64,000 nt of DNA from an uncultured Gemmatimonadales bacterium (GCA_964195945.1 CAXMRC010000135.1:16518-80517), one strand, 5' to 3'; positions 15,034-60,827 are shown, numbered from the stretch's first letter. Numbers and translations: made by a program. The notes: a model not told the origin generated them from the sequence alone.

Positions 15034-15813
15034 ATGGCCGAAAGGAGGAATGTGCAGAACGATCTATCTGGCGAACAATGCGTCATTTGTGGCGCCGGTG
15101 CTGCGGTGCGTGTTGCCGGAACCAGTTTCTGTGCGTCCTGTGGGCTGCACCAGTACTCGAGTGGCGGTCTTGCGCCGGGTGCCGTCTCTTTGCCTGGCCC
15201 CCGATCGCACCGCGCCGCCATAGTCGGGATTTTCTCTTCCGGGTTTCTTCTCAAGATGCTGATGGGCGCAGTTGCGCTGGCCACGGTTGGTGGGGTGACG
15301 GCATCACTCCAGAGCGATCCTGTCGCGGCATCGTCGAGTCCGCCGCCTGCGGCGGCAACGGTCGTTCCAAATCTGGTGCCAAGCACCATTGCCGCGGTAG
15401 TGCCAATAGATTCTGATACCGAGGTACCTGACGCGGTGGTGGATCCGACCCGCGGTTCCGATCAGGTCGCGGCGGCCCACGAGTACGTCGCCGCGGTCCA
15501 GGCTTGGGCCGACTGTGTTTCCGAGGCTGCTTCAACCCACTCTCGCGGAACCTTCGATCCAGTTGCGGTATGCGAGAAACCTTCAACGCCAGCCGACTTC
15601 GATATCCCTGGTCATGATGAGGATGGTCCGGGTGCGTCTGAGGATGCTCCTGGTCATGATGAGGATCGTCCGGGTGCGTCTGAGGATGCTCCTGGTCATG
15701 ATGAGGATGGTCCGGGTGCGTCTGAGGATGCTCCTGGTCATGATGAGGATGACGGCGATACCGATGACGGTGATGCCGAGTCTTCCACAGACGACAAGGA
15801 CAAGGACAAGTAG
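15034..15813 (+). CDS. Zinc-ribbon membrane protein with an acidic tandem-repeat C-terminus
   Basis: The N-terminus has CVICG..(16)..CASCG, then one TM helix. The C-terminus carries 3.7 copies of a 14-aa repeat, PGHDEDGPGASEDA (a 42-bp DNA repeat at 15607-15760), and ends in a D/K-rich tail. The start could be ATG 15034 or GTG 15052 (after the AAAGGAGG). Confidence 0.5.
   Translation: MAERRNVQNDLSGEQCVICGAGAAVRVAGTSFCASCGLHQYSSGGLAPGAVSLPGPRSHRAAIVGIFSSGFLLKMLMGAVALATVGGVTASLQSDPVAASSSPPPAAATVVPNLVPSTIAAVVPIDSDTEVPDAVVDPTRGSDQVAAAHEYVAAVQAWADCVSEAASTHSRGTFDPVAVCEKPSTPADFDIPGHDEDGPGASEDAPGHDEDRPGASEDAPGHDEDGPGASEDAPGHDEDDGDTDDGDAESSTDDKDKDK
15607..15760 (+). repeat. 42-bp perfect tandem repeat, x3.7, inside the CDS
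   Basis: cctggtcatgatgaggatggtccgggtgcgtctgaggatgct recurs at 15607, 15649, 15691 and 15733. Confidence 0.9.
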
Positions 15814-23200: not shown

Positions 23201-23247
23201 TCCGGTTCGACAGCGATGATCGGCGCGTCTTGGGACCATTGGCTCAC
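20233..23247 (-). CDS. adnA: AdnA-like UvrD-family helicase-nuclease subunit
   Basis: The N-terminus has VVGGPGTGKTEFL, and DEYQDT, IYSFRGA and HQAKGLE follow. The C-terminal nuclease region ends in HCDRCGLRSLC. The start overlaps the stop of the upstream nuclease gene. Confidence 0.75.
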   Translation of the reverse strand: MSQWSQDAPIIAVEPDGWADAVALTDGPQIVVGGPGTGKTEFLVRRAIHLLTAKEVRPEAITILGFSRRGVAEVRERIRAGIPATIGELDVATFHSYAARLVENHAEQAGWTVNPQILTGPEQVALVHRLLLAENPGSWSQAFSQLLGTQTFAKEVTDFILRAAEQMHTPTSLATMQRDDWKGLPQFLETYTNELRGTDRIDYGTLIATAVTLLESGDLATVDSPGYVLVDEYQDTTTAQVRLLQALQHRGRHIAAAADPYQSIYSFRGATVENVAAFESDFGASDEMATRILLTTSFRTPETILNAAVHVTTGDLPGATGAVVPAAGRGAVEAYLFDQQVEEAEWIASEAQRLHLTERIPYSNIGVFVRSKRRFLADMSRALERRHVPHELPGSRLTDQPAVRFLLDLAVAATACDGPIAANQSLRRVLLGSRVGLTIGAYRALERTARSTGAWAPAIRATLPDWAPLANLIADASWANQVPAVQGLWRVWSELPGIEEMVNDPTAAEERAAWRSLAQVLNRWEERNPKGTLLDYRGLAESEDFEAQPLLSYRRPDGDRLTLTTLHQAKGLELDVVFIADAVDGVFPDLRSRDSLLGVRHLLPHVPTDTAEYRAFRLQEESRLAYTAMTRARRRVVWTATERGLDDGPGRPSRFFTKIAATINQDPGRPAGRIEICVSPDTTPQESSRLPVTPSEAESALRRCLTDVAAPSPSRLAALTTLADGPTWDLRSPQLFSGVPARGPNDLLVGADPVLSPSQAQGYEICPRRYALERRLKVGSDSSIHATFGTLIHDVLEAAEKRAVADGRPHSTLEEALQELNDRFDPYDFEGPPFSNSWVQRAHAGLAKLYQNWPAPQRTAAVLEQRLDTVIAGVRWTGRADRIDVSPAGVTVVDYKTSRSPVTVAEASESLQLGFYALAAQRDEEIGALGAVVGAELWYPMASNKKVAVRKFKMEGLDEVEARLTAIAIGIQNEDWSPNPGPHCDRCGLRSLCPAWADGGPEFV

Positions 23248-24086
23248 GACGCGGCGACTGCGGCGTTCGCCTCATCGGCAAATGCAGGGCAGCGATCTTG
23301 GAACTGGCACCAACCACACAGCTTGCCTGGTCGGGGAGGGAAATCGTTTTTGACGATTGCCCGATTGATCGCAGACCACAATGCCTCTAACTTTCGCTGT
23401 GTTGCGTCCAGTTGGAGGTCGTTCACCGGTATCTCGTAGACGGTTGGCCCGTTGAGGTACATCAGCTTCAGGCGGACTGGAGTTCGTCCGATCCGCTTCC
23501 TGATCAATAACGCATAGATTTTTAGGGCAAAGAACGCCGGGATTGCATACTGCTCGGGAGGAGCTTTACCGGTCTTGTAATCAGTGATCACAACACCGTC
23601 CGGTTCCTCTTCCATACGGTCCAGGATCCCTCGAATCGTCATATCTCCGAGATCCTCGGTCATGTCCAGCTCGCGGTCGAGTGGCTCGAGTTGGGTCGGA
23701 TCCTCTACCAAGAAATAATTGGCGAGAACACCGAGACTTTCGATGCCCCAGGCCCGCTCATCTTCAGTGTTGTCAAAGAGGTCGGGGAACTCTTCGTCGC
23801 GGAGCTCCACCCACGCCTTGCGGAACAACCCGTAAAGGGTTTCGGGTGTTCGTTCTTTGGCGGCTAGGTCAAATAGCCATTGCAGTGCTAGATGAGCTGT
23901 TGTCCCGCGTGCCTGATAGACCGTTGGCGGAACTTCGATCTTGTCGATCGCCTTGAATTTGAAAAGCTGTGGGCAGACTTTGAAGTCGCCGGCGCGGCTT
24001 GGCGATAGCGTCTCCAAGGAGGTCGGCGGAGACATCTCCGGCTTCGGTCGAGGTGTCTTCTGCGGGGTTTTGTCAGGAGTTGTCAT
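23244..24086 (-). CDS. Cas4-like / RecB-family PD-(D/E)XK nuclease with a 4-Cys Fe-S cluster
   Basis: An N-terminal Cys (FKVCPQLF) pairs with a C-terminal CGWCQFQDRC, giving the C..CxxCx5C pattern. A DYK(TG) motif is present. GGAGA sits 5 nt before the ATG at 24086. The ORF track extends to 24344. Confidence 0.65.
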   Translation of the reverse strand: MTTPDKTPQKTPRPKPEMSPPTSLETLSPSRAGDFKVCPQLFKFKAIDKIEVPPTVYQARGTTAHLALQWLFDLAAKERTPETLYGLFRKAWVELRDEEFPDLFDNTEDERAWGIESLGVLANYFLVEDPTQLEPLDRELDMTEDLGDMTIRGILDRMEEEPDGVVITDYKTGKAPPEQYAIPAFFALKIYALLIRKRIGRTPVRLKLMYLNGPTVYEIPVNDLQLDATQRKLEALWSAINRAIVKNDFPPRPGKLCGWCQFQDRCPAFADEANAAVAAS

Positions 24087-24239
24087 CGTTTCTCCGACTA
24101 TACGCCGGCCCACCGACATAAACCACATCGATGTAGTTATCCACAGCCGGACGCGTCGATGGAGCAGCGGCAACAGCCGATGGTGATGCATCGCGAAACA
24201 ATTTCGTAGCACGCGAAAACTATAATGCGATCTGGTTTG

Positions 24240-24975
24240 ACTGCCCGCTGCGGTCGGCTTTACGTTATGGGTCCTTGAGGGCTCCACCCATGGAGGAGCG
24301 GAATTCGGAAGGACGGGACCAGGGAAACCGGACCCGACCGGCACCGGATTCTATGACCAGGGCGCTTGCGTCCACGGTCACCCGGAATGGATACATTCCG
24401 TCTCGGCGGCGCTTCGGCAAAGCCGGGAAACCCGCCGCAGGGACTTCGGTCTCAGTGGCACGTCGGACAGGCTTCGGCCTCAAAGACAGCCTGCGGGACT
24501 TCGGTCCGGCAGATGCTGCGGCTTCGGCCACAGCAAAACTGGGTGAGCTTCGGCTCGACCAGCGTTCTCCGAGTGAGGCGCATCGCCCACCGGGTGCGGG
24601 CTTCGGCCCAAGCCAGGTAGACGGTTGCCGCACCCGCAGGACCGATAAGACTTCTGGTCTTATCAACACACCGGTGCGATCGGTGGTCACGAGGGTTTCC
24701 TCGATTGAGAGCTTCGGCTCTGAACTGAGAGTCGTCAGGCTTAGGTCTGGTGGCAAGCCAGCGGGATCAAAAGGTCACACGGGTTGCCCCGAGCGAGGGC
24801 TTCGGCACTCGCAAGGAGCGGCACGGCTGGCTCGTGGCAGGACTTCGGTCCTGAACCGAGCGAGACGAGCAGCGACTGGAAGGGCCCGACCCCTCGGGGT
24901 AGGTGCCCGACCGAAAGCAAAGAATCCCCGAGAGGGTGGCGGTTTCGGCCAAAACTCCCTCGGGGTTTTCTTTGT
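24240..24975 (+). ncRNA. Candidate large structured RNA: an array of ~11 cUUCGg tetraloop hairpins ending in a terminator-like hairpin plus U-tract
   Basis: No convincing ORF covers the region. Perfect small palindromes recur at 24411, 24442, 24470, 24495, 24520, 24545, 24598, 24708, 24797 and 24840. Each carries a UUCG loop on the plus strand only. Nested junctions occur, for example CGGCGG..GCUUCGGC..CGGGAAACCCG..CCGCCG. The last hairpin (24918-24962) is followed by uuuucuuuguu. Confidence 0.35.
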
Positions 24976-24981
24976 TCGTGT

Positions 24982-25590
24982 TCAGCCGCAACCAGTGGCG
25001 AGCTCGATAAGGGTTACGGTGTCGGATTCCTCACGCCCACTGAGCAGCCCACGAATCTCAGTCCCGGCAATGCGGAACGACCACACATCCAGCTCCGTGT
25101 TGCCATCGACAGTCAAATCCGACCCGTAAGCGTCGGTGAGATCGCTGACGGTGCTTCCCAACCCCACACCAGCCGCGGTTGTCAATCTGAGGCCGCGGGG
25201 GTCAAATCCGCCCACGTTTTCGGAGTAGTCGTAGCCGTAGGAATAGGAGTAGAACCAGCCCCCAAGACGGTTCGCACCATCTCTGATGAAAATCGTCAAC
25301 AGGCTTCCCCACCCAATCGCCCGCATTTCGGAGCCGGGGCATGATCCGTAGATATTTGGCTCCGAGACAATCCAGTCGGAATCGTGATCGGGCTCACCGA
25401 AGAGGGCCGAGATCTCGGCGATCACGGTCTCCGGGGGCACCCCAAGCAGCACATCGCCGAGTCCATCATCCTCCAATACCAACTCCGCCAGCGGAGCGGT
25501 GTCGGACCCTTCCGGGCCGGGCTCGGTCACGGCGCACCCGGACGCCAGCAAGACCACGAACGCCAGGACAAGATGAGAGGTTGATCGCAT
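24982..25590 (-). CDS. Lipoprotein of unknown function
   Basis: Signal peptide plus lipobox MRSTSHLVLAFVVLLASGCAV. The ORF extends to 25839, and I take the signal-peptide Met at 25590 as the start. Confidence 0.5.
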   Translation of the reverse strand: MRSTSHLVLAFVVLLASGCAVTEPGPEGSDTAPLAELVLEDDGLGDVLLGVPPETVIAEISALFGEPDHDSDWIVSEPNIYGSCPGSEMRAIGWGSLLTIFIRDGANRLGGWFYSYSYGYDYSENVGGFDPRGLRLTTAAGVGLGSTVSDLTDAYGSDLTVDGNTELDVWSFRIAGTEIRGLLSGREESDTVTLIELATGCG

Positions 25591-25620
25591 AGGGAACCAA
25601 ACCCTAGAGCCAAACACCGC

Positions 25621-27414
25621 ATGGTCCAACGCGATAAGCTCCGTGCGGCTGGAGGAGAGCCGATGGATGACGATACAGGCAGCATGACTGACGGTTCGGG
25701 GCCCCGGGTCACGCGCGAGCTCGACCTCGTCGGTCGGCGGCGTGAGTTTCGGATCGCTGGTGTCACCGTTGCCGGTCGACGGCGACGCCCATCGGGAGAA
25801 GCTGCACCACTGCCACGGGAATTGCGGACAGCGGGTCATCTCTGGTTGCTATCCGGGCTTCTCATGGTCGCTGTCTGGATATCTCTCTTTTTGGTTCCGG
25901 CTTCAACAGACTGGTGGAGCGTCCAGGATCACAAAGCCTTGGCCTGGTTTGTCGACCTACGTTCGGACAGCCTCACCTCCGTTGCCAAAGCCTTCAACGC
26001 ACTGACCTCTGACATGTTTATCCGGGTGCTGCGGGTCGGGACTCTGCTCTCGCTGGTGTTTATCAAGAGATGGCGTCATTTCTTTGCGGTGCTGTTGGCA
26101 ATTCTGATCGTGCAGGGCACAGGCGAGGCCCTCCAGGGCATGGTCGGACGTCCCCGTCCGCTGGTTCCGATCCTTGCCGACTGGCGCGGTGCCTCCCACC
26201 CATCGCTCCCGGTGGCAGCGTTGGCGGTCACCTTTGGCGTTATGGCCTATGCGCTTCTTCCCAGCAGTAGGTGGAGACGAGGGATACTTGTTGGCTCGGG
26301 GGCGCTCATGGTCGTGGTGGCGTTTGCCAGGGTATATCTCGGGGTTGACCACCCATCCGATGCTTGGGTATCGCTGCTGTTTGCTCCCGCGGTGGCGGTC
26401 GTGGTGTTTCGGCTGTTCGCCCCGGAGGCTGCATTCCCGGTGTCATGGAAGCGTGGCGTCACTGCTCACCTCGACGTGTCGGGGCGCCGCGGTGTTGCTA
26501 TCCGTAACGCGGTGCGAGATCAGCTGGGTATCGAACTGGTCTCCATCGAGCCATTCGGGCAGGAAGGATCCGGCGGCTCGACACCCCTACGACTCGAAAT
26601 GGCCCCTGACCGAGCTCACGGTGAGAACTATCTATTCGCAAAGCTCTACAGCCAGACCCACCTGAGGTCGGATCGTTGGTACAAGGTGGGGAGGACAATC
26701 CTCTATGGAGCGCTCGAAGATGAGCTGCGCTTCACCTCGGTGCGCCGCTTGGTCGAGTACGAGGACTATATCCAGCGGGTGATGCGGGACTGCGGCATCC
26801 CGGCCGCGGAGCCGTTCGGAATCGTCGAGATAACCCCTGACAGGGAATATCTGATGGTGAGTCAATTCCTTTTCGAATCAGAGGAGTTGACGGATGCCGA
26901 AGTCGATGTCGATCTTGTCGACGACGCCCTCGGTGTTATTCGCCAGATGTGGGATGCCGGACTGGCCCACCGCGACATCAAACCTGCGAACGTGATGGTT
27001 AGGAACAATCAGGTCGTGCTTATCGACGTTGCGTTCGGAACGGTTCGCCCCAGCCCATGGCGACAAGCTGTGGATCTAGCCAACATGATGGTGATCCTGG
27101 CGTTGCGAACCGACGCGGAGCTCGTATACCAGCGGGCGCTACTGCAGTTCGATTCGCATGACATCGCCGAGGCATTCGCCGCAACACGGAGCGTTACGTT
27201 GCCGTCACAATCGCGTAGCTCGCTCGCTCTGTTGAAGCGTGAGGAAGGGATCGACATCGTCAAGGAATTCCGTCGCTTGGCGCCGGCAGCAGAGCCGATT
27301 TCGATACAGCGGTGGAGCACCCGGCGTATTGGCCTGACCGTCGGTGCTGCCTTCCTCGCAGTCCTGTTGCTCAGCATCATCGTGTCCGAGATCTCCGGAG
27401 GGGGCATGTTGTGA
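25621..27414 (+). CDS. Membrane protein fusing a PAP2 lipid phosphatase to a Hanks-type Ser/Thr-kinase-like domain
   Basis: The PAP2 motifs are VGRPRP, SHPS and ARVYLGVDHPSD. The kinase-like part has a G-loop FGQEGSGGS, a beta3 Lys in LFAKLY, an alphaC Glu, a catalytic loop LAHRDIKPANVMV and IDVAFG about 19 residues on. A C-terminal TM helix closes the protein. Confidence 0.6.
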   Translation: MVQRDKLRAAGGEPMDDDTGSMTDGSGPRVTRELDLVGRRREFRIAGVTVAGRRRRPSGEAAPLPRELRTAGHLWLLSGLLMVAVWISLFLVPASTDWWSVQDHKALAWFVDLRSDSLTSVAKAFNALTSDMFIRVLRVGTLLSLVFIKRWRHFFAVLLAILIVQGTGEALQGMVGRPRPLVPILADWRGASHPSLPVAALAVTFGVMAYALLPSSRWRRGILVGSGALMVVVAFARVYLGVDHPSDAWVSLLFAPAVAVVVFRLFAPEAAFPVSWKRGVTAHLDVSGRRGVAIRNAVRDQLGIELVSIEPFGQEGSGGSTPLRLEMAPDRAHGENYLFAKLYSQTHLRSDRWYKVGRTILYGALEDELRFTSVRRLVEYEDYIQRVMRDCGIPAAEPFGIVEITPDREYLMVSQFLFESEELTDAEVDVDLVDDALGVIRQMWDAGLAHRDIKPANVMVRNNQVVLIDVAFGTVRPSPWRQAVDLANMMVILALRTDAELVYQRALLQFDSHDIAEAFAATRSVTLPSQSRSSLALLKREEGIDIVKEFRRLAPAAEPISIQRWSTRRIGLTVGAAFLAVLLLSIIVSEISGGGML

Positions 27415-28979: not shown

Positions 28980-30202
28980 GATTGTGCGGTCACATAGGCG
29001 TCACCGGCTAATGCGGTCCGCTCCGATTCTGACATTCGCCACGTTTGGTTCCGCTGCCACAGCACATAGGAAGCTGCGCCAAGCGGAATTGGTAGAACAT
29101 ACGTTATAGCGCGGAAGACGAGGATCGCAGCAACCACCTCGGTCTTGGTGACCACGTCTAGTCCGATCGTTAGCGCCGCAACGTAGCCCAACTCGACGAC
29201 TCCGACACCACCCGGTGTCACCGGGAGGGCAGAAATCAATCTGACAAATGCGAACGCGGCCAGCACCTGAATCCAAGAGAGCTCTTCCTGGCTTACGCCG
29301 GTATGACGCAGGGTGATCAGTAGCACGGCATAGAGGGACAGGTGGCTGAGCATGGTGGCCAACGTCAGTTGTAGCCAGCGGTGCTGCAGAAGCCCGATCG
29401 TATCGCTGCGGAATCCGGCAGCCCGCTCACCCCAACTGCTGACAGGGCCTTTGCGCAAGATGCGGAGCAACTTTGACACCAGTCGTTCCAAAGCAGTACC
29501 GACGGATCGAGCAAGCCGATCGCTACCGAGAATCATCCAGAGACCTGTTACTGCGCCGCCTAAGGCCGCAAGCCCTATTGCCGAGGCCGTGATCCAAGCA
29601 TTCGAGACTTCGCTTTCAATGGCAAGCAGGCCAAGTGCGAGGATCGGCATGCCCATCTTGACGAAGTTGTTCCAGATCCCGGTCACCACGGCAGAGCGGG
29701 TTATGGCCGGCACAGAGAAGCCCCAAGAAGTCAGCATTGCGAGCGTGACGCCGACACCGATCGCCCCACCGCCGGGAAGAGTATTGGAGACGGCTGTGGA
29801 CGACTGATTGACCACAGTGGCTTCTCGCAAGCGAAGCCCGGGAAGCGCAGCAACGAGGACGAACCAGTAGGTAGCGAGATTCCAGAGCGCAACAATGCCC
29901 AACGAGATCGACTCCAGCCAGGTAAGTGACCGGACTGTTCCCCACACCTCGGTGTAATCAGCGATCCGGGGCATCACGCCAGCAAAGATGGCGACGACGA
30001 CGACTATCGAGATGACGGACTGGACAATTCGTCGTGTCTTTGGGGGCGGAGTTGTCCCGGATTGGTCTATGGACTTGGCCGCTTTGTCGCTCACTGTTTG
30101 GACCTCGTTAGTCGCCGTACGCGACACTACACGTTGGCCTCGTCTGCCCGGGCTGCGAGCCATAAACGGGTCGCGAAACAAAACAAAAAGGCGCGAAATC
30201 AA
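28976..30202 (-). CDS. Flippase-like integral membrane protein (lysylphosphatidylglycerol-synthase TM-region / UPF0104-like)
   Basis: About 8 TM helices with a GGGA(I)G(V)G segment, recognised by architecture. Its stop overlaps the PAP2 gene's stop region (convergent). Confidence 0.5.
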   Translation of the reverse strand: MISRLFVLFRDPFMARSPGRRGQRVVSRTATNEVQTVSDKAAKSIDQSGTTPPPKTRRIVQSVISIVVVVAIFAGVMPRIADYTEVWGTVRSLTWLESISLGIVALWNLATYWFVLVAALPGLRLREATVVNQSSTAVSNTLPGGGAIGVGVTLAMLTSWGFSVPAITRSAVVTGIWNNFVKMGMPILALGLLAIESEVSNAWITASAIGLAALGGAVTGLWMILGSDRLARSVGTALERLVSKLLRILRKGPVSSWGERAAGFRSDTIGLLQHRWLQLTLATMLSHLSLYAVLLITLRHTGVSQEELSWIQVLAAFAFVRLISALPVTPGGVGVVELGYVAALTIGLDVVTKTEVVAAILVFRAITYVLPIPLGAASYVLWQRNQTWRMSESERTALAGDAYVTAQS

Positions 30203-30255
30203 GTAACCAGTTTTGCTTGACCAAAGTGATTAGTGCGTCCTATGTTGTTCTCAGT

Positions 30256-30530
30256 CGTTGAGGCGGGAAACCGCAGCAGCGGCGCCGGGGCCCCGCAAGG
30301 GGTCACGGAGATCCGGAAGGGACGTCGACCCGCAAGGGAAGGTGGCCACCCGTAAGGGAAGTCCGGGGACGAGCCCCAGTGGTTCGACCCCACGGGCCCA
30401 GAAAGATCGGCCGGTTGAGACCTCGGTTTCAGCAGGTATCTCAGTTGAGCCGAAAGGCACCGACTGAGAAGGAAAACCCCGAGAGGGTGGAAGCTTCGGC
30501 GGAAACTCCCTCGGGGTTTCTCCGCGTCTC
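30256..30530 (+). ncRNA. Candidate structured RNA rich in GNRA tetraloop hairpins, sharing its 3' hairpin module with the 24240-24975 element
   Basis: The plus-strand hairpins are CCCCgcaaGGGG, CCCgcaaGGG, CCCguaaGGG and GCCgaaaGGC (inside CTCAGT..ACTGAG). A T-loop-like GTGGttcgaccCCAC is also present. The 3' module 30469-30527 is ~85% identical to 24918-24972. Confidence 0.3.
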
Positions 30531-30653
30531 AAGTACCTTCGCATCGTTCTTGCGGATAGTTGAGCGCTAGTGGTGTGTCCGCAAGTTCGCAGAGACCCGA
30601 GCACCAACCCAGAGGATCGCCAGTCCCTGAGTGAGACGGCGTATGATTGGGCC

Positions 30654-31286
30654 ATGGCATTTCCAGAGAACATCCTCACCGACGACGAGTCCATCATCCG
30701 ACAATTCCGACCCCACTGGAGGATGCTTGCCATCCCCGTGCTGTGGGTCATCGCCGCCATTGTGGCGATCGTTGTGGTTTTCCAAGTTATCGACGCCGAG
30801 GGTTGGGTAGCGATAGCCCTCGTCGCTCTGATCTTGCTTGCGTTGATCCCACTAGGTGTGAACCCGTTCATCAAGTGGTTCTTTACTTCCTATGTGCTGA
30901 CGAGCGAGCGTCTCATTACCCGTACCGGGATGATCGCTCGCAGCGGGATCGAACTCCCGCTGCAGAACATCAACAATGTGCTGTTCAACCAAAGCATCAT
31001 CGAACGGTTCCTCAAGTCAGGGGATTTACTGATCGAGTCGGCAGGGGAGAGCGGACAGAGCGAGTTCACGAACATTCCGAATCCCGAAGAGTTCCAATCC
31101 TTGCTGTATCGGACCCGTGAAGATCAGAGCCGCAACACCGCGGCTGAGGAGTCAGCGATCGCGGCCGAGATCACTCGGGACCCGACGGAACAACTCGAAA
31201 GAGCGGCGAAGCTTCGCCAAGAGGGTGTGCTTTCGGATACGGAGTTCGAGGATATGAAGCGCAAGATCCTCGGAGATGCCGAGTAG
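30654..31286 (+). CDS. bPH_2 (YdbS/YdbT-like bacterial PH domain) membrane protein with a C-terminal SHOCT domain
   Basis: A two-TM hairpin is followed by a PH-like region and a C-terminal LRQEGVLSDTEFEDMKRKIL. The ORF opens at 30570, and the likely start is the internal Met at 30654. Confidence 0.5.
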   Translation: MAFPENILTDDESIIRQFRPHWRMLAIPVLWVIAAIVAIVVVFQVIDAEGWVAIALVALILLALIPLGVNPFIKWFFTSYVLTSERLITRTGMIARSGIELPLQNINNVLFNQSIIERFLKSGDLLIESAGESGQSEFTNIPNPEEFQSLLYRTREDQSRNTAAEESAIAAEITRDPTEQLERAAKLRQEGVLSDTEFEDMKRKILGDAE

Positions 31287-49400: not shown

Positions 49401-49859
49401 TTGTTTCACCAGGCGTTCGAAGAGATTTCGGCGTACTACGAAGAGAATTTCGACCTGGTGTTCCCTGGAGGCAAGGGTGGCTTGTCTCTGACCGAGCCGG
49501 ACAGCCTGCTGGAGACGGGCGTCGATATCGAGGCGCAGCCGCATGGCAAGAAGGTTGGCAAACTGAGCCTGCTATCCGGCGGCGAAAAATCGCTGGCGGC
49601 TCTGGCCTTCCTGTTTGCGGTCTTCCGTGCCAGACCGTCCCCGTTCTATGTCCTCGATGAGGTCGAGGCGGCCCTCGACGACGCCAATCTTCGTCGGTTC
49701 TTGCGTCTGGTCGACACGCTCCGTGAGAGCGCCCAGGTCATCATCATCACCCATCAGCAGCAGACCATGCAGGCTGCAGACATTCTGTACGGGGTGACGA
49801 TGGAGCCGGGGGAGTCGTCGCTAGTGATCGCAAAACGGATTCACGAACACGCCATTTGA
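46419..49859 (+). CDS. smc: Chromosome partition protein SMC
   Basis: GTG start. The N-terminus is LKTLSLVGFKSF..GPNGSGKSN. A long coiled coil and a hinge follow. The C-terminus has LSGGEKSL and Walker B YVLDEVEAALD. Confidence 0.9.
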   Translation: MFLKTLSLVGFKSFADRTRLDFEAGVNVVVGPNGSGKSNLLDALAWVMGTQATRALRTEKMEDVIFAGTATRPALGRAEVTVTFDNSDEFLPIGLAEVRMTRRLFRDGSSEYELNGAPCRLMDLHELLSDGGVGRSQHVLVGQGQIGSILNARPNEHRAVIEEAAGVTKHKNRRDRSVRRLEQTEIDLSRLNDILDQQRSRLRPLKRQANAAAKHGSVRDEIKALQLWLGGEKLRRLRERNEKASTEHLALSTRVTNDGGELAALNLELGALRGEASEVGTALERDTSAAARLETVAERFQRIGLVARERRFSLESRQRGAGERRADLELELDQLNLDIAAARAAEGSATELTDRRETVLRQLEDEERSLAEQTQLPAEGVVANLRGDLRSLENAAERDTKESEALTRRRELIEVRFVEEEGDAATLIEAIQDTDAAVTGAQPAYTAAGDSAAAAREQSDIADVDKRDKQIALAGAQARIEALETALAGLVDPVAMERAGTADGVVGALVARLDVPADMAVAVDGALGEWRGAFVVSDRTALQRVITGLKSDGLGGVGFVAVDAAGVALARSVADEWGVDALVDRLGANADQGLAVSLLGDVVVAEGWSSAWGIVSRHPEVRAVTPEGDVITAAGMRLAQPDGAGPAALEAAGVALERAEIDLARADARHLTIEREFTALREQERSALEALETLEARLAGHTEALALNERARAVSREELERIDARAAGIAAAVTGRQERLGELRSRIEQFEGEEKSRQEAWEALNRRRDEVARRRDEARRLREEVAADLASAAERRRILENRLETATAELVAVDDSPVDPTTIDRLSRIEDDAKRALSVVRSHIQALRERQLALRGEMGEADERLADAYERQKELETDISLAKERVSALAIELAEIAVRDESVAEGLRRDADVSEEVALAAPQPELEEDSNPEERLASLEAQLRRMGPINPLAAQEYEELAAGVDLLEAQLADLEDSRAELRKVIKALDAEMATLFHQAFEEISAYYEENFDLVFPGGKGGLSLTEPDSLLETGVDIEAQPHGKKVGKLSLLSGGEKSLAALAFLFAVFRARPSPFYVLDEVEAALDDANLRRFLRLVDTLRESAQVIIITHQQQTMQAADILYGVTMEPGESSLVIAKRIHEHAI

Positions 49860-49932
49860 CTCGATCCTGGCTGAAGGCCAGGCGCTGATGTTCTGTGTAG
49901 CGGAACTCGATCCTGGCTGAAGGCCAGGCGCT
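49860..49932 (+). repeat. Tandem duplication (period 46 nt) of a 27-nt hairpin unit, ctcgatCCTGGCtgaagGCCAGGcgct, immediately after smc
   Basis: The two copies at 49860-49886 and 49906-49932 are identical. Each holds a 6-bp inverted repeat. Confidence 0.7.
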
Positions 49933-57387: not shown

Positions 57388-57454
57388 TCCTCCAGCGCAA
57401 GGATCGGTTTTCCGCAGAGTAGTGGCCTGGCTTGCGGTGAGGTTTGAGTTTGGC

Positions 57455-58822
57455 TTTGCCTAACTCGGGCGAGGTGTATTGCTCCTGGTCGTACTGGTTC
57501 GCCCTGGGATTCTTGGAGACTCTCGAGTGTGGAAAGATGAGAGTTATGGCACGAGAGATTACGTCGGGAAAACCGACCACACGGCGGTATTCGAATGAGG
57601 AGAAGGATCGGGCGGTTCGTCTGGTTTTCCAGCTTCGTGAGGAGTTGGGGATGTCGCAGGGGACGGTGGTTCGGGTTGCTGACCAGTTGGGTTACGGCAC
57701 CGAGTCGGTGCGCCGGTGGGTAGCCCAAGCCGAGATTGATGCCGGGGGTGTTGCGGGTATCTCGACTGCGGAGCGGGCCAAGATATAAAAGCTTGAGCAG
57801 GAAAACCGGGAGCTACGATGAGCCAACGAAATCTTGAAGCGGGCTTCGGCTTTCTTTGCGGCGGAGCTCGACCGCCCACAGAAGTAATGGTGCAGTTCAT
57901 TGACGAGAATCGTGACGACTTTGGGGTCGAGCCTATCTGTGCGACGTTGCAGGTGGCCCCATCGACATATTACGAAAACAAGTCTCGGATACCATCGGCT
58001 CGTGCGATCCGCGATGCGGTGATGATGCCGATCCTGTTGGCCCTGTTTCAGGCGAACTACTCGGTCTATGGGGTCCGGAAACTGTGGAAGGCAGCGTTAC
58101 GTGACGGTCACACGATTGGCCGTGACCAGGTGGCTCGTCTGATGAAGGCTCTTGATATTGAGGGAGTTTCACGTCGTCGACGGGTTCGCACGACCCGCCC
58201 CGACGACAAAGCCGTCCGGCCCCAAGATCTTGTCGAGCGGGACTTCACTGCCGATCAGCCGAACCAGCTGTGGGTGACGGACCTAACGTTTGTTCCGACC
58301 TGGCAAGGTGTTGGGTATGTGTGTTTCATCATCGATGCGTTCTCCCGCCAGATCGTCGGGTGGCGGGTTGCTTCCAATATGAGAACCCAGATGGTCCTCG
58401 ACGCCTTAGAGATGGCCCGCTTTTCTAGAGGCACCCGCCTCGAAGGTCTTGTGGCTCATTCCGATGCCGGGTCGCAATACACATCGATCCGATACGGGGA
58501 ACGCCTCGACGAGATCGGAGCAATACCATCGATCGGATCGGTCGGTGATTCGTTCGATAATGCACTTGCGGAGTCGGTTAACAGTCTCTACAAAGCCGAG
58601 CTGATCTACGGACCAGATCAGGGACCGTGGCGCAGCATCGAGGACGTCGAACTGGCTACTTTGGGTTGGATCCACTGGTACAACACCAAGCGGATCCACA
58701 GCTATCTCAACGACGTTCCACCGGCCGAATTCGAGGACACCTACCATGCCCAACAACGGGCAAGACAGTTGATTGGAAACCAATAGAACGAGCCTCCAAC
58801 AAACCCAGTACGCACCATACGG
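57455..58822 (+). mobile_element. IS3-family insertion sequence (orfA 57537-57788, orfB 57818-58786)
   Basis: orfA is an HTH transposase N-terminus (..AVRLVFQLREELGMSQGTVVRVADQLGYG..). orfB carries an rve DDE integrase core (WVTDLTF..IDAFSR.., HSDAGSQYTS, DSFDNALAES). The imperfect terminal inverted repeats are GGTCGTACTGGTT and AACCCAGTACGCACC. The element lies between upp and ffh. Confidence 0.75.
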
Positions 58823-59007
58823 TGGCCTGTGGCGAGGTTTGAGTTTGGCTTTGCCTAACTCAGCCAACTGCCAGCCTGCCGCTTTGCGGCCTGCAGACGT
58901 GTTGATCGGGCAGTGAGCTGCAGTTCGTAATGTGCCGCTTGCGGCACACGCGAACTGTAGGCGTGACGGGTCGCTGCGCGACCCGTCACGCCTACACTCC
59001 GGCGGAC

Positions 59008-60350: not shown

Positions 60351-60827
60351 ATGTCGGTCAAGATCCGCCTGACGCGGATGGGCAAGAAGAAACAACCGTC
60401 TTATCGCGTCGTAGTGGTGGACTCGCGCAAGCAGCGCGACGGGGCCTATCTCGAGCAAATCGGTCGTTATGACCCGCGTGCCGAGCCCTCGCTCGTCGAA
60501 ATCGACAATGAGCGAGCCCTCGACTGGTTGCAGAAGGGCGCCCAGCCCACCGAACGAGCCAAAAAGCTCCTGGAGATCTCCGGGGCATGGACGCGTTTTG
60601 CCGTCGACCGCGGTGAGATTCACACCGTCGGTGCATCGAAAGCAGAACCGGCGCCGGCACCAGAGCCAGAGCCCGTGGCAGTCGTAGAGCCAGAGCCCGT
60701 GGCAGTCGTAGAGCCAGAGCCAGAGCCCGTGGCAGTCGTAGAGCCAGAGCCAGAGCCCGTGCCAGCCGCAACAGAGGTCGAAGAAGAGCCTACGGACGAC
60801 GCCAGCGCTGAAAAGGTGGACGAATAG
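60351..60827 (+). CDS. rpsP: 30S ribosomal protein S16 with a C-terminal repetitive extension
   Basis: MSVKIRLTRMGKKKQPSYRVVVVDSRKQRDG is S16. The tail (EPEPVAVV)x4 is encoded by 24-27-bp tandem DNA repeats at about 60655-60765. Confidence 0.85.
   Translation: MSVKIRLTRMGKKKQPSYRVVVVDSRKQRDGAYLEQIGRYDPRAEPSLVEIDNERALDWLQKGAQPTERAKKLLEISGAWTRFAVDRGEIHTVGASKAEPAPAPEPEPVAVVEPEPVAVVEPEPEPVAVVEPEPEPVPAATEVEEEPTDDASAEKVDE

Follow-up and report, generated by a model that had tools for sequence, protein, structure and literature searches.

Families of redundant bacterial small RNAs (sRNAs), such as Qrr1-5, CsrB/CsrC, and RsmX/Y/Z, are held together by a common upstream activating site and by a shared conserved block, which is a single-stranded seed or a set of loop-displayed GGA motifs, while their terminators vary. 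In Hfq-dependent sRNAs, the 3' hairpin and the U tail constitute a protein-binding module, of which Hfq recognises the U tail and not a specific stem sequence; Hfq is generally reported to be missing from Actinobacteria. Here, we analyse a hairpin module that is repeated in two distant intergenic regions of a 64,000-nucleotide (nt) stretch of DNA (GCA_964195945.1, CAXMRC010000135.1:16518-80517, filed under an uncultured Gemmatimonadales bacterium; the whole stretch is hereafter called the window) and that appears to mark a class-wide, apparently undescribed family of non-coding RNA cassettes in Acidimicrobiia. Among described elements, the "Tuberculosis Rho-independent terminator" (TRIT) motif of Mycobacterium occurs in 147 mostly bidirectional copies per genome, which lie at the stop codons of protein-coding genes or overlap them and are confined to Mycobacterium (Gardner et al., 2011; PMC3152330). 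Its authors proposed that a factor binds to the double-stranded motif (PMC3152330). Ms1 RNA is an RNA polymerase-binding RNA of Actinobacteria, described in a paper that makes no mention of Acidimicrobiia (PMC9130861).

In the window, the pattern CCCCGAGAGGGUGG-N12-AAACUCCCUCGGGG was found exactly twice, at positions 24926-24965 and 30477-30516 of the plus strand, with zero occurrences expected by chance. A search for CCCCGAGAGGGTGG-N12-AAACTCCCTCGGGG with up to three mismatches allowed returned no third match in the window, the chance expectation from 100 shuffles being again zero. The two sites, both on the plus strand and within 1 nt of where the original prediction had placed them, are as follows:

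24917-24976, plus strand: module copy 1, core 24926-24965 followed by a UUUU tract, predicted 3'-terminal hairpin of RNA-A, 70.9 bits
30468-30528, plus strand: module copy 2, core 30477-30516 followed by a UUUCUC tail, predicted 3'-terminal hairpin of RNA-B, 82.5 bits

With filters disabled, a covariance model built for the hairpin (R1) detects just these two sites in the whole 64 kb, both strands included, with the next best match at 10.9 bits, and finds no such hairpin at the ends of the window's protein genes. At both sites, the reverse strand scores 32-34 bits compared with 71-83 bits on the plus strand, and the predicted folding energies are -31.1 kcal/mol for copy 1 and -29.2 kcal/mol for copy 2. 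The original prediction correctly described a 17-nt identical 3' run (AAACUCCCUCGGGGUUU, comprising the 3' arm plus UUU) and an inner UUCGGC common to both copies. The identical 5' run, which it gave as 21 nt, comprises 14 nt (CCCCGAGAGGGUGG), and the sequence that it wrote out for copy 1 begins at 24919 instead of 24918. Outside the module, pairwise alignment limits the similarity of the two copies to a short CCGAC..AGAAG stretch immediately 5'. The stop codon of a convergent gene (24982-25839, minus strand) lies 10 nt from copy 1.

Both module copies sit in long gene-free stretches in which short hairpins with cUUCGg or GNRA caps are densely packed, all of them on the plus strand; in the 900 nt located 5' of copy 1, the plus strand has 11 CTTCGG and not a single CCGAAG. 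Compared with shuffled sequences, the folding z-score is -5.5 for the RNA-A region and -4.8 for the RNA-B region. Because each gene-free stretch opens with the same promoter and closes with the module and U residues, we predict two RNA genes with the following features:

24192-24218, plus strand: upstream boxes of RNA-A, CGCGAAA-N13-CGCGAAA, 20 bp from start to start, exact match
24237-24266, plus strand: core promoter of RNA-A, -35 TTGACT (24237-24242), 18-bp spacer, -10 TACGTT (24261-24266)
24270-24972, plus strand: RNA-A, structured non-coding RNA of about 700 nt with tetraloop-capped hairpins, both ends predicted
30172-30198, plus strand: upstream boxes of RNA-B, CGCGAAA-N13-CGCGAAA, exact match, kept in all group B orthologues
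30217-30246, plus strand: core promoter of RNA-B, -35 TTGACC, 18-bp spacer, -10 TATGTT (30241-30246), kept in the group B alignment
30253-30525, plus strand: RNA-B, structured non-coding RNA of about 270 nt, both ends predicted

The TACGTT element and its spacing are kept in the group A alignment, and RNA-A would start near 24270. The complete pattern CGCGAAA-N13-CGCGAAA-N18-TTGAC(T/C)-N18-TA(C/T)GTT describes the two window sites and occurs nowhere else in the 64 kb; the box pair CGCGAAA-N13-CGCGAAA alone also has exactly two occurrences in the window. Nine apparent box pairs on the opposite strand turned out to be the same boxes read backwards, the TTCGCGAA core being palindromic. We consider it probable that each hairpin forms the 3' end of its own non-coding RNA gene, the two genes being independent and probably co-regulated, and that the hairpin would serve as a terminator and, presumably, also as a handle.

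For comparison, related genomes were scanned, one genome per species, with the pattern CCCGAGAGGGTGG-N6-20-ACTCCCTCGGG, resulting in 42 loci from metagenome-assembled genomes labelled Acidimicrobiia, Actinomycetota or, in a few cases, "Acidobacteriota" or "uncultured bacterium". JASJHC01 is the closest relative of the window among the 42 loci (84-88% protein identity), and, judging from the gene order common to the checked loci, the window organism is an Acidimicrobiia bacterium. A relaxed search identified 67 modules in the 42 loci and the window, in one orientation throughout and with none in the opposite orientation, and the covariance model recovers 66 modules in the 42 loci. The promoter is present 5' of 63 of the 67 modules. 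When both strands of 387 kb were scanned with a weight matrix of the promoter at a cut-off of 12 bits, we obtained 63 matches above the cut-off, on the module strand only, and each has a module 82-893 nt downstream. Individual loci contain two to three cassettes, all carrying the same box pair. The original prediction had left room for a local duplication if further copies failed to appear; modules are present at orthologous loci in many genomes, which disposes of that alternative, and its view of a functional repeat, as opposed to a chance one, is supported, the repeat being under selection. Among viral contigs, we found no match to the hairpin pattern.

A second sample was collected without reference to the hairpin, by scanning metagenomes with the promoter only (CGCGAAA-N13-CGCGAAA-N18-TTGAC), which gave at least 120 loci with at least 130 promoter matches; a module was counted if it was located within 1.3 kb downstream on the same strand. 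Among the matches listed, 111 of the 116 promoters with enough downstream sequence lead to a module. The 130 matches listed divide as follows:

109 matches: module found by sequence profile, same strand
2 matches: module found by covariance model only
14 matches: contig ends too soon
3 matches: chance match in unrelated DNA
2 matches: upstream of a protein gene (one nrdJ-like, one PadR-family)

Promoter and hairpin are paired one to one and conserved, together with their gene neighbourhood, across Acidimicrobiia. The two matches upstream of protein genes are, among the matches listed, the sole promoter matches in plausibly related DNA that have no module. One (L147, 545-1149) precedes a PadR-family regulator gene and the other (L084, 9270-9700) a class II ribonucleotide reductase-like (nrdJ-like) gene, identified by eye, with NrdR-box-like repeats; these genes may belong to the regulon of the cassettes as protein-coding members, or the matches may be due to chance. 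We considered the PadR-family gene as the box-binding regulator and set it aside, as it was found in L147 only, with no homologue in the window or the other loci.

The RNA bodies vary in length from about 0 to 860 nt, and the predicted RNAs fall into classes of about 50, 95, 150, 240, 270-300, 330-460, and 540-860 nt; the 150-nt class, shared by several lineages, is a conserved RNA with four hairpins. Other lineages have two to three tandem RNAs at the locus, with bodies unrelated in sequence and the same promoter and 3' module; in such arrays, the next promoter starts about 40-100 nt past the module. The smallest members, which we call mini cassettes, consist of the full box promoter followed directly by the hairpin, with a predicted RNA of about 50 nt that is essentially the hairpin alone:

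L008, 4088-4223: mini cassette
L020, 2063-2194: mini cassette
L024, 2761-2897: mini cassette

The U tract in the mini cassettes is very weak (GGGGUUCACUCGCG), and from their sequence these cassettes may read through into the next one.

Pair statistics of the hairpin were compiled from 65 distinct copies of the genome set and from 97 unique copies of the promoter-anchored metagenome set. The base of the module is formed by 3-7 flank pairs between the A/G-rich 5' flank and the U tract, followed by a stem of 12 positions, CCCCGAGAGGGU over ACUCCCUCGGGG, and by a 3x3 purine loop (GGA/GAA) that leads to a 3-bp helix capped by UUCG or GCAA. The stem register is unbroken, with an A·C mismatch instead of a bulge. 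Over the 65 copies, 92% of the cells are paired and 7 of the 18 pairs have changed on both sides; the proposed structure beats all 500 shuffles and every slid register. The 97 promoter-anchored copies show the following pairs:

Pair 10-50: C-G in 86, U-A in 10
Pairs 11-13 with 47-49: CCC/GGG, invariant
Pair 14-46: G-C in 89, A-U in 4, U·G in 2, G·U in 1, C-G in 1
Pair 17-43: A·C in 48, A-U in 24, G-C in 9, A·A in 8
Pair 19-41: G·U in 96, G-C in 1
Pair 21-39: C-G in 53, U·G in 20, U-A in 18

The compensatory changes, and wobble pairs that are sensible on the plus strand only, indicate that the helix is real and acts in RNA. The destabilising non-canonical pairs (G·U and A·C) have been retained even though a single transition would repair each of them. 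More than 90% of the 65 copies have UUU after the stem, and the inner hairpin is dispensable in L093. A GCG(U) motif is kept 6-10 nt past the stem in 64 of the 98 metagenome copies (consensus GGGG-UUUCUC-GCGU; e.g., window 30517-30528), and a Y-C-GCGU motif is conserved 3' of the U tract. In the short RNAs of group C, the tail TTTTTCGCG matches the promoter box CGCGAAAAA in reverse complement. The GCG(U) tail motif may act as a signal for pausing or termination, or as a second operator.

Bodies and hairpin alike are structured at the RNA level. Orthologues of RNA-A were found by nhmmer in 10 loci and those of RNA-B likewise in 10 loci (seven aligned and three added by nhmmer), and the two often co-occur in one genome. 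The 3' 350 nt of RNA-A comprise 91 predicted pairs, 22 of them with compensatory changes, and the consensus fold of RNA-B comprises 94 pairs, 10 with compensatory changes; both consensus folds are multi-branched sets of hairpins. The bodies look like stable scaffolds: their commonest 7-mers are tetraloop hairpins, which the opposite strand lacks almost entirely. UUCG, GCAA, GAAA, and GAGA are the loops. RNA-A and RNA-B are not recognisable as paralogues beyond the module: their pairwise alignment is unconvincing, and nhmmer profiles of the bodies recover their own orthologues only. Gene conversion between the copies was considered and discarded, as the inner hairpins track orthology (W1 resembling L004 and L042, W2 resembling L013 and L027). 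Because the inner hairpins differ between the window copies and each agrees with those of its orthologues, selection and not gene conversion explains the identity of the arms in both paralogues.

Searches with Rfam 15 at the gathering threshold over the whole window gave the ALIL pseudoknot described below as the sole match, and with E-values up to 10 the best hit in the two intergenic regions had E = 0.58. The cassettes of 16 related loci gave no match at the gathering threshold, and the 150-nt-class RNA gave nothing significant at E-values up to 10. Neither a tRNA nor a tmRNA was found in the window. The raiA motif, which has been reported in Acidimicrobiia, has no Rfam match here. A Guanidine-II (mini-ykkC) riboswitch match in L039 (2308-2365, minus strand; 32.3 bits against a gathering threshold of 32 bits) is unrelated to the cassettes.

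The ancestral order of the locus is a helicase-nuclease gene (AdnB-like), a gene for a PD-(D/E)XK nuclease of 280 amino acids (aa), the RNA genes, a bPH_2 gene, ybaK, and trmA. The checked loci of the 42 share the same gene order, and nuclease/helicase and/or bPH_2 neighbours are present in 98 of the 120 metagenome loci listed; nearly all cassettes are thereby placed between the nuclease/helicase pair and the bPH_2 membrane-protein gene. An intervening block of about 5.5 kb keeps the two RNA genes apart in the window clade and encodes a 285-aa unknown protein, a PAP2/kinase-like protein, a 320-aa unknown protein, a PAP2 protein, and an LPG-synthase transmembrane-domain protein; the 285-aa and 320-aa proteins have no NCBIfam or Pfam match. 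The conserved neighbours in the window are as follows:

23244-24086, minus strand: PD-(D/E)XK nuclease (Cas4/RecB-like), 280 aa, Pfam PDDEXK_1, conserved upstream neighbour
30654-31286, plus strand: gene for a membrane protein with bPH_2 and SHOCT, Pfam bPH_2 3e-17, conserved downstream neighbour of the cassettes

A practical outcome is the correction of gene calls. The mechanically called open reading frame (ORF) 23244-24344 (minus strand) is 86 codons too long and crosses the RNA-A promoter; a comparison of the in-frame starts identified the ATG at 24086, with the ribosome-binding site GGAGAA, as the true start of the nuclease. The plus-strand ORFs 24275-25129 and 30647-31120 (157 aa) are shadow frames, the latter shadowing the bPH_2/SHOCT gene. 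This gene has its own -10 element, TATGAT (30642-30647), 6 nt 5' of the ATG at 30654; the same arrangement of a -10 element followed by an ATG (6-7 nt) is also found in L008, L014, and L025, and the spacing suggests that the bPH_2 mRNA is probably leaderless. In L009, L014, L025, and L033, the nuclease gene is inverted to the RNA strand and detached from the helicase gene, and still lies directly upstream of the first cassette, which hints at a functional link between nuclease and RNA rather than mere inherited gene order. Between the nuclease start (24086, minus strand) and the RNA-A boxes, a DnaA-box-like TTATCCACA occupies positions 24137-24145 of the window, and TGTGGATAA or TGTGGACAA motifs are found at the equivalent place in L041, L007, and L023. 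The DnaA-box-like site may indicate a DnaA-regulated promoter of the nuclease-helicase operon.

From these patterns, we infer a model that comprises transcription of each cassette, co-regulation, exact RNA ends, termination, and a binding partner. Two TCGCGAAA boxes at about -75 and -55 would presumably be bound by one transcription factor, and a sigma-70-type promoter would transcribe each cassette, with the shared boxes conferring shared regulation. The transcript would continue through a variable body of short UUCG- or GNRA-capped hairpins located between promoter and module. The module would then fold during transcription into a stem of about 12 bp, the 3x3 purine loop, and 3 bp with a tetraloop, its base being extended by pairing of the flank with the U tract. 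It could halt RNA polymerase as an intrinsic terminator, persist as a protected 3' end of the RNA, and double as the functional handle of the family, most likely one on which a lineage-specific RNA-binding protein or a termination/processing factor docks. Such a role as a handle is suggested because the fixed G·U pair, the A·C mismatch, and the invariant CCC/GGG exceed what termination needs, and because the hairpin is kept in paralogues with unrelated bodies and in the U-poor mini cassettes. We propose tentatively that a protein, or a termination/processing factor, specifically recognises the hairpin. A likeness of the 5' arm (CGAGAGG) to the sarcin-ricin loop, and one of the G·U/G-C pairs with the purine loop to the S15 site of 16S rRNA, are given no weight here. 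We are more doubtful about a wider reading, in which two to three or more cassettes per genome beside the PD-(D/E)XK nuclease/helicase locus form an undescribed RNA cassette system of Acidimicrobiia, with the hairpin as a functional core that titrates or recruits a lineage-specific factor, as an analogue of 6S, Ms1, or Csr or as a new class.

Several points weigh against a terminator that is also a handle. The start and end points of the RNAs, and their termination, are all predicted. With 3-5 U residues, often interrupted, the U tract is short, and the mini cassettes have almost none, so that some copies may not terminate transcription. No candidate for the binding protein or the box-binding factor was identified in the window or the loci, and the loops are inert-looking UUCG or GNRA tetraloops, not obvious protein-binding motifs. 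The genome loci were picked by an exact hairpin pattern, which inflates the apparent conservation in that set; the promoter-anchored copies correct this selection bias, but the profile used for scoring them derives from the hairpin-selected set. The stem conservation could, moreover, result from shared ancestry and selection for an efficient terminator, with no partner involved.

This last explanation, in which an efficient intrinsic terminator was duplicated along with the RNA genes and has been conserved by descent and for its strength, agrees with the canonical anatomy, in which a GC-rich stem (about -30 kcal/mol) leads into U residues, with the constant position of the hairpin at the close of the promoter-defined unit, and with the dispensable inner hairpin in L093; TRIT in Mycobacterium provides a precedent for sequence-conserved terminators in Actinobacteria (PMC3152330). 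The hairpin indeed has the features of an intrinsic terminator, since a GC-rich hairpin adjoins a U-rich, albeit short, tract at the 3' end of a transcription unit, the units being predicted. A terminator without further function would, however, hardly retain a stem-weakening G·U in 96 of 97 copies and an A·C in about half of them, where one transition would strengthen the stem. Nor does it account for arms that are identical between paralogues with fully diverged inner hairpins and bodies, for mini cassettes that retain the hairpin without a real U tract, or for the absence of the hairpin from the ends of protein genes in the window. We regard this explanation as unlikely. The shared terminator suggested by the original prediction stands as far as the GC-rich hairpin and the following UUU are concerned; instead of terminating ordinary plus-strand transcripts or particular gene families, which the prediction had put forward for checking, the copies close promoter-bearing non-coding RNAs. 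The prediction had recognised neither the two intergenic regions as RNA genes nor their identical promoter architecture. The protein-binding site that it also suggested may hold, and is favoured by the conserved non-canonical pairs.

Alternatively, the RNAs might be long 5' leaders of the riboswitch or attenuator type, whose terminator controls read-through into the bPH_2 gene, as RNA-B and the last RNA of most loci are located upstream of a co-oriented bPH_2 gene. Such a cis-regulatory leader is very improbable because a conserved -10 element of the bPH_2 gene itself lies 6-7 nt ahead of the ATG, so that this gene appears to be leaderless, and because RNA-A, like its nine orthologues, is followed by a convergent gene. 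In addition, the group C RNAs reside in a different gene neighbourhood, each RNA in the tandem arrays has its own promoter, and the pattern of a riboswitch is reversed here, with a conserved "expression platform" and a variable "aptamer". Hardly credible is a dispersed palindrome of the repetitive extragenic palindrome (REP), miniature inverted-repeat transposable element (MITE), or BOX type, or a double-stranded DNA site for recombination or protein binding. The module is a near-palindromic intergenic repeat, and its reverse strand also reaches 25-36 bits with the model. Against this, just two copies are present in the 64 kb, the positions of the copies are orthologous across the class, the pattern is absent from viral contigs, and the conserved G·U and U·G pairs are sensible only in plus-strand RNA. 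The orientation is also fixed relative to the promoter in 67 copies of the genome set and, among the matches listed, in 111 metagenome copies. With a single orientation, conserved neighbourhoods, and no viral copies, the small mobile or REP-like unit proposed by the original prediction is not borne out. The reading that we prefer remains that of two RNA genes, each ending in a hairpin that would both terminate transcription and serve as a handle.

Elsewhere in the window, we observed several repeats. The ALIL pseudoknot, a frameshift element of the IS3 family (57848-57961, plus strand; 89.1 bits, E = 1.9e-21), is flanked by a 39-nt direct repeat (57428-57466 and 58823-58861, 92% identical), which together suggest an IS3-type insertion sequence. 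A tandem repeat at 15607-15771 consists of six 60-nt copies at a spacing of 21 nt, and tandem units of 24/30 nt at 60636-60760 are rich in GAGCCA, which would encode Glu-Pro; the periods of both are divisible by three, and both probably encode low-complexity, repetitive parts of proteins. At 49859-49886 and 49905-49932, two exact copies of a 28-nt direct repeat lie 46 nt apart and contain a small hairpin (CCTGGCTGAAGGCCAGG).

In the literature searched, we found no paper on the RNA biology of Acidimicrobiia, which are abundant in soil, sediment, and water, nothing relevant to the box sequence or to non-coding RNAs of this class, and no description of the cassette family. If our reading is correct, the class would possess a non-coding RNA gene family that is identifiable by two short signatures, namely the box pair of the promoter and the hairpin at the 3' end, and that comprises clear length classes, including the four-hairpin RNA of about 150 nt and RNAs of about 700 nt. 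The conserved non-canonical pairs would then predict a specific partner and the promoter element a regulator, and the family would have a conserved tie to a DNA-end-processing locus. The hairpin would also be the second sequence-conserved terminator of Actinobacteria after TRIT, and would bear on how common factor-assisted intrinsic termination is in this phylum.

When compared with the known systems, the cassettes agree with Qrr and Csr/Rsm in being paralogous RNA genes with the same promoter-proximal regulator sites upstream and with a block that stays constant while the rest diverges. By analogy, this logic suggests dosage-dependent titration or a common partner. The constant block of the cassettes is, in contrast, the terminator hairpin itself, with UUCG or GNRA loops, and no (A)GGA loop motif of the CsrA type was seen in the cassettes. 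With Hfq-dependent sRNAs, the module would share an intrinsic terminator that doubles as a protein platform; unlike in those sRNAs, the stem sequence is the conserved part of the module. As with 6S and Ms1, which are both abundant and bind to RNA polymerase, the predicted RNAs are abundant-looking, highly structured, and stand-alone, in a phylum without a detected 6S RNA. They do not belong to that group, since the rod-like fold with a central bubble is not matched by the multi-hairpin RNA-A and RNA-B, there is no Rfam match to 6S, and the neighbours differ (a HAD-IB hydrolase and an oxidoreductase for Ms1; the nuclease/helicase pair and bPH_2 here). Membership among riboswitches and attenuators is rejected by the conserved terminator and variable body, the convergent gene after RNA-A, and the leaderless-type promoter of bPH_2. 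Likewise, two copies in the 64 kb, with 0 of 67 in the opposite orientation, 63 of 67 linked to a promoter, and none viral, set the module apart from REP, bacterial interspersed mosaic elements (BIME), and MITE. TRIT is the closest precedent, as both are actinobacterial terminator hairpins conserved in sequence and structure. The module differs from TRIT, compared here by description, in having two copies in the 64 kb, a dedicated promoter, one orientation, a location at the ends of non-coding RNAs, and a distribution confined to Acidimicrobiia; it is not a member of TRIT, as its copies end non-coding RNAs in all loci examined and every genome match is from Acidimicrobiia. We place the cassettes with sRNA genes that end in an intrinsic terminator, a kind already known, and what is new is the unusually conserved hairpin together with the promoter.

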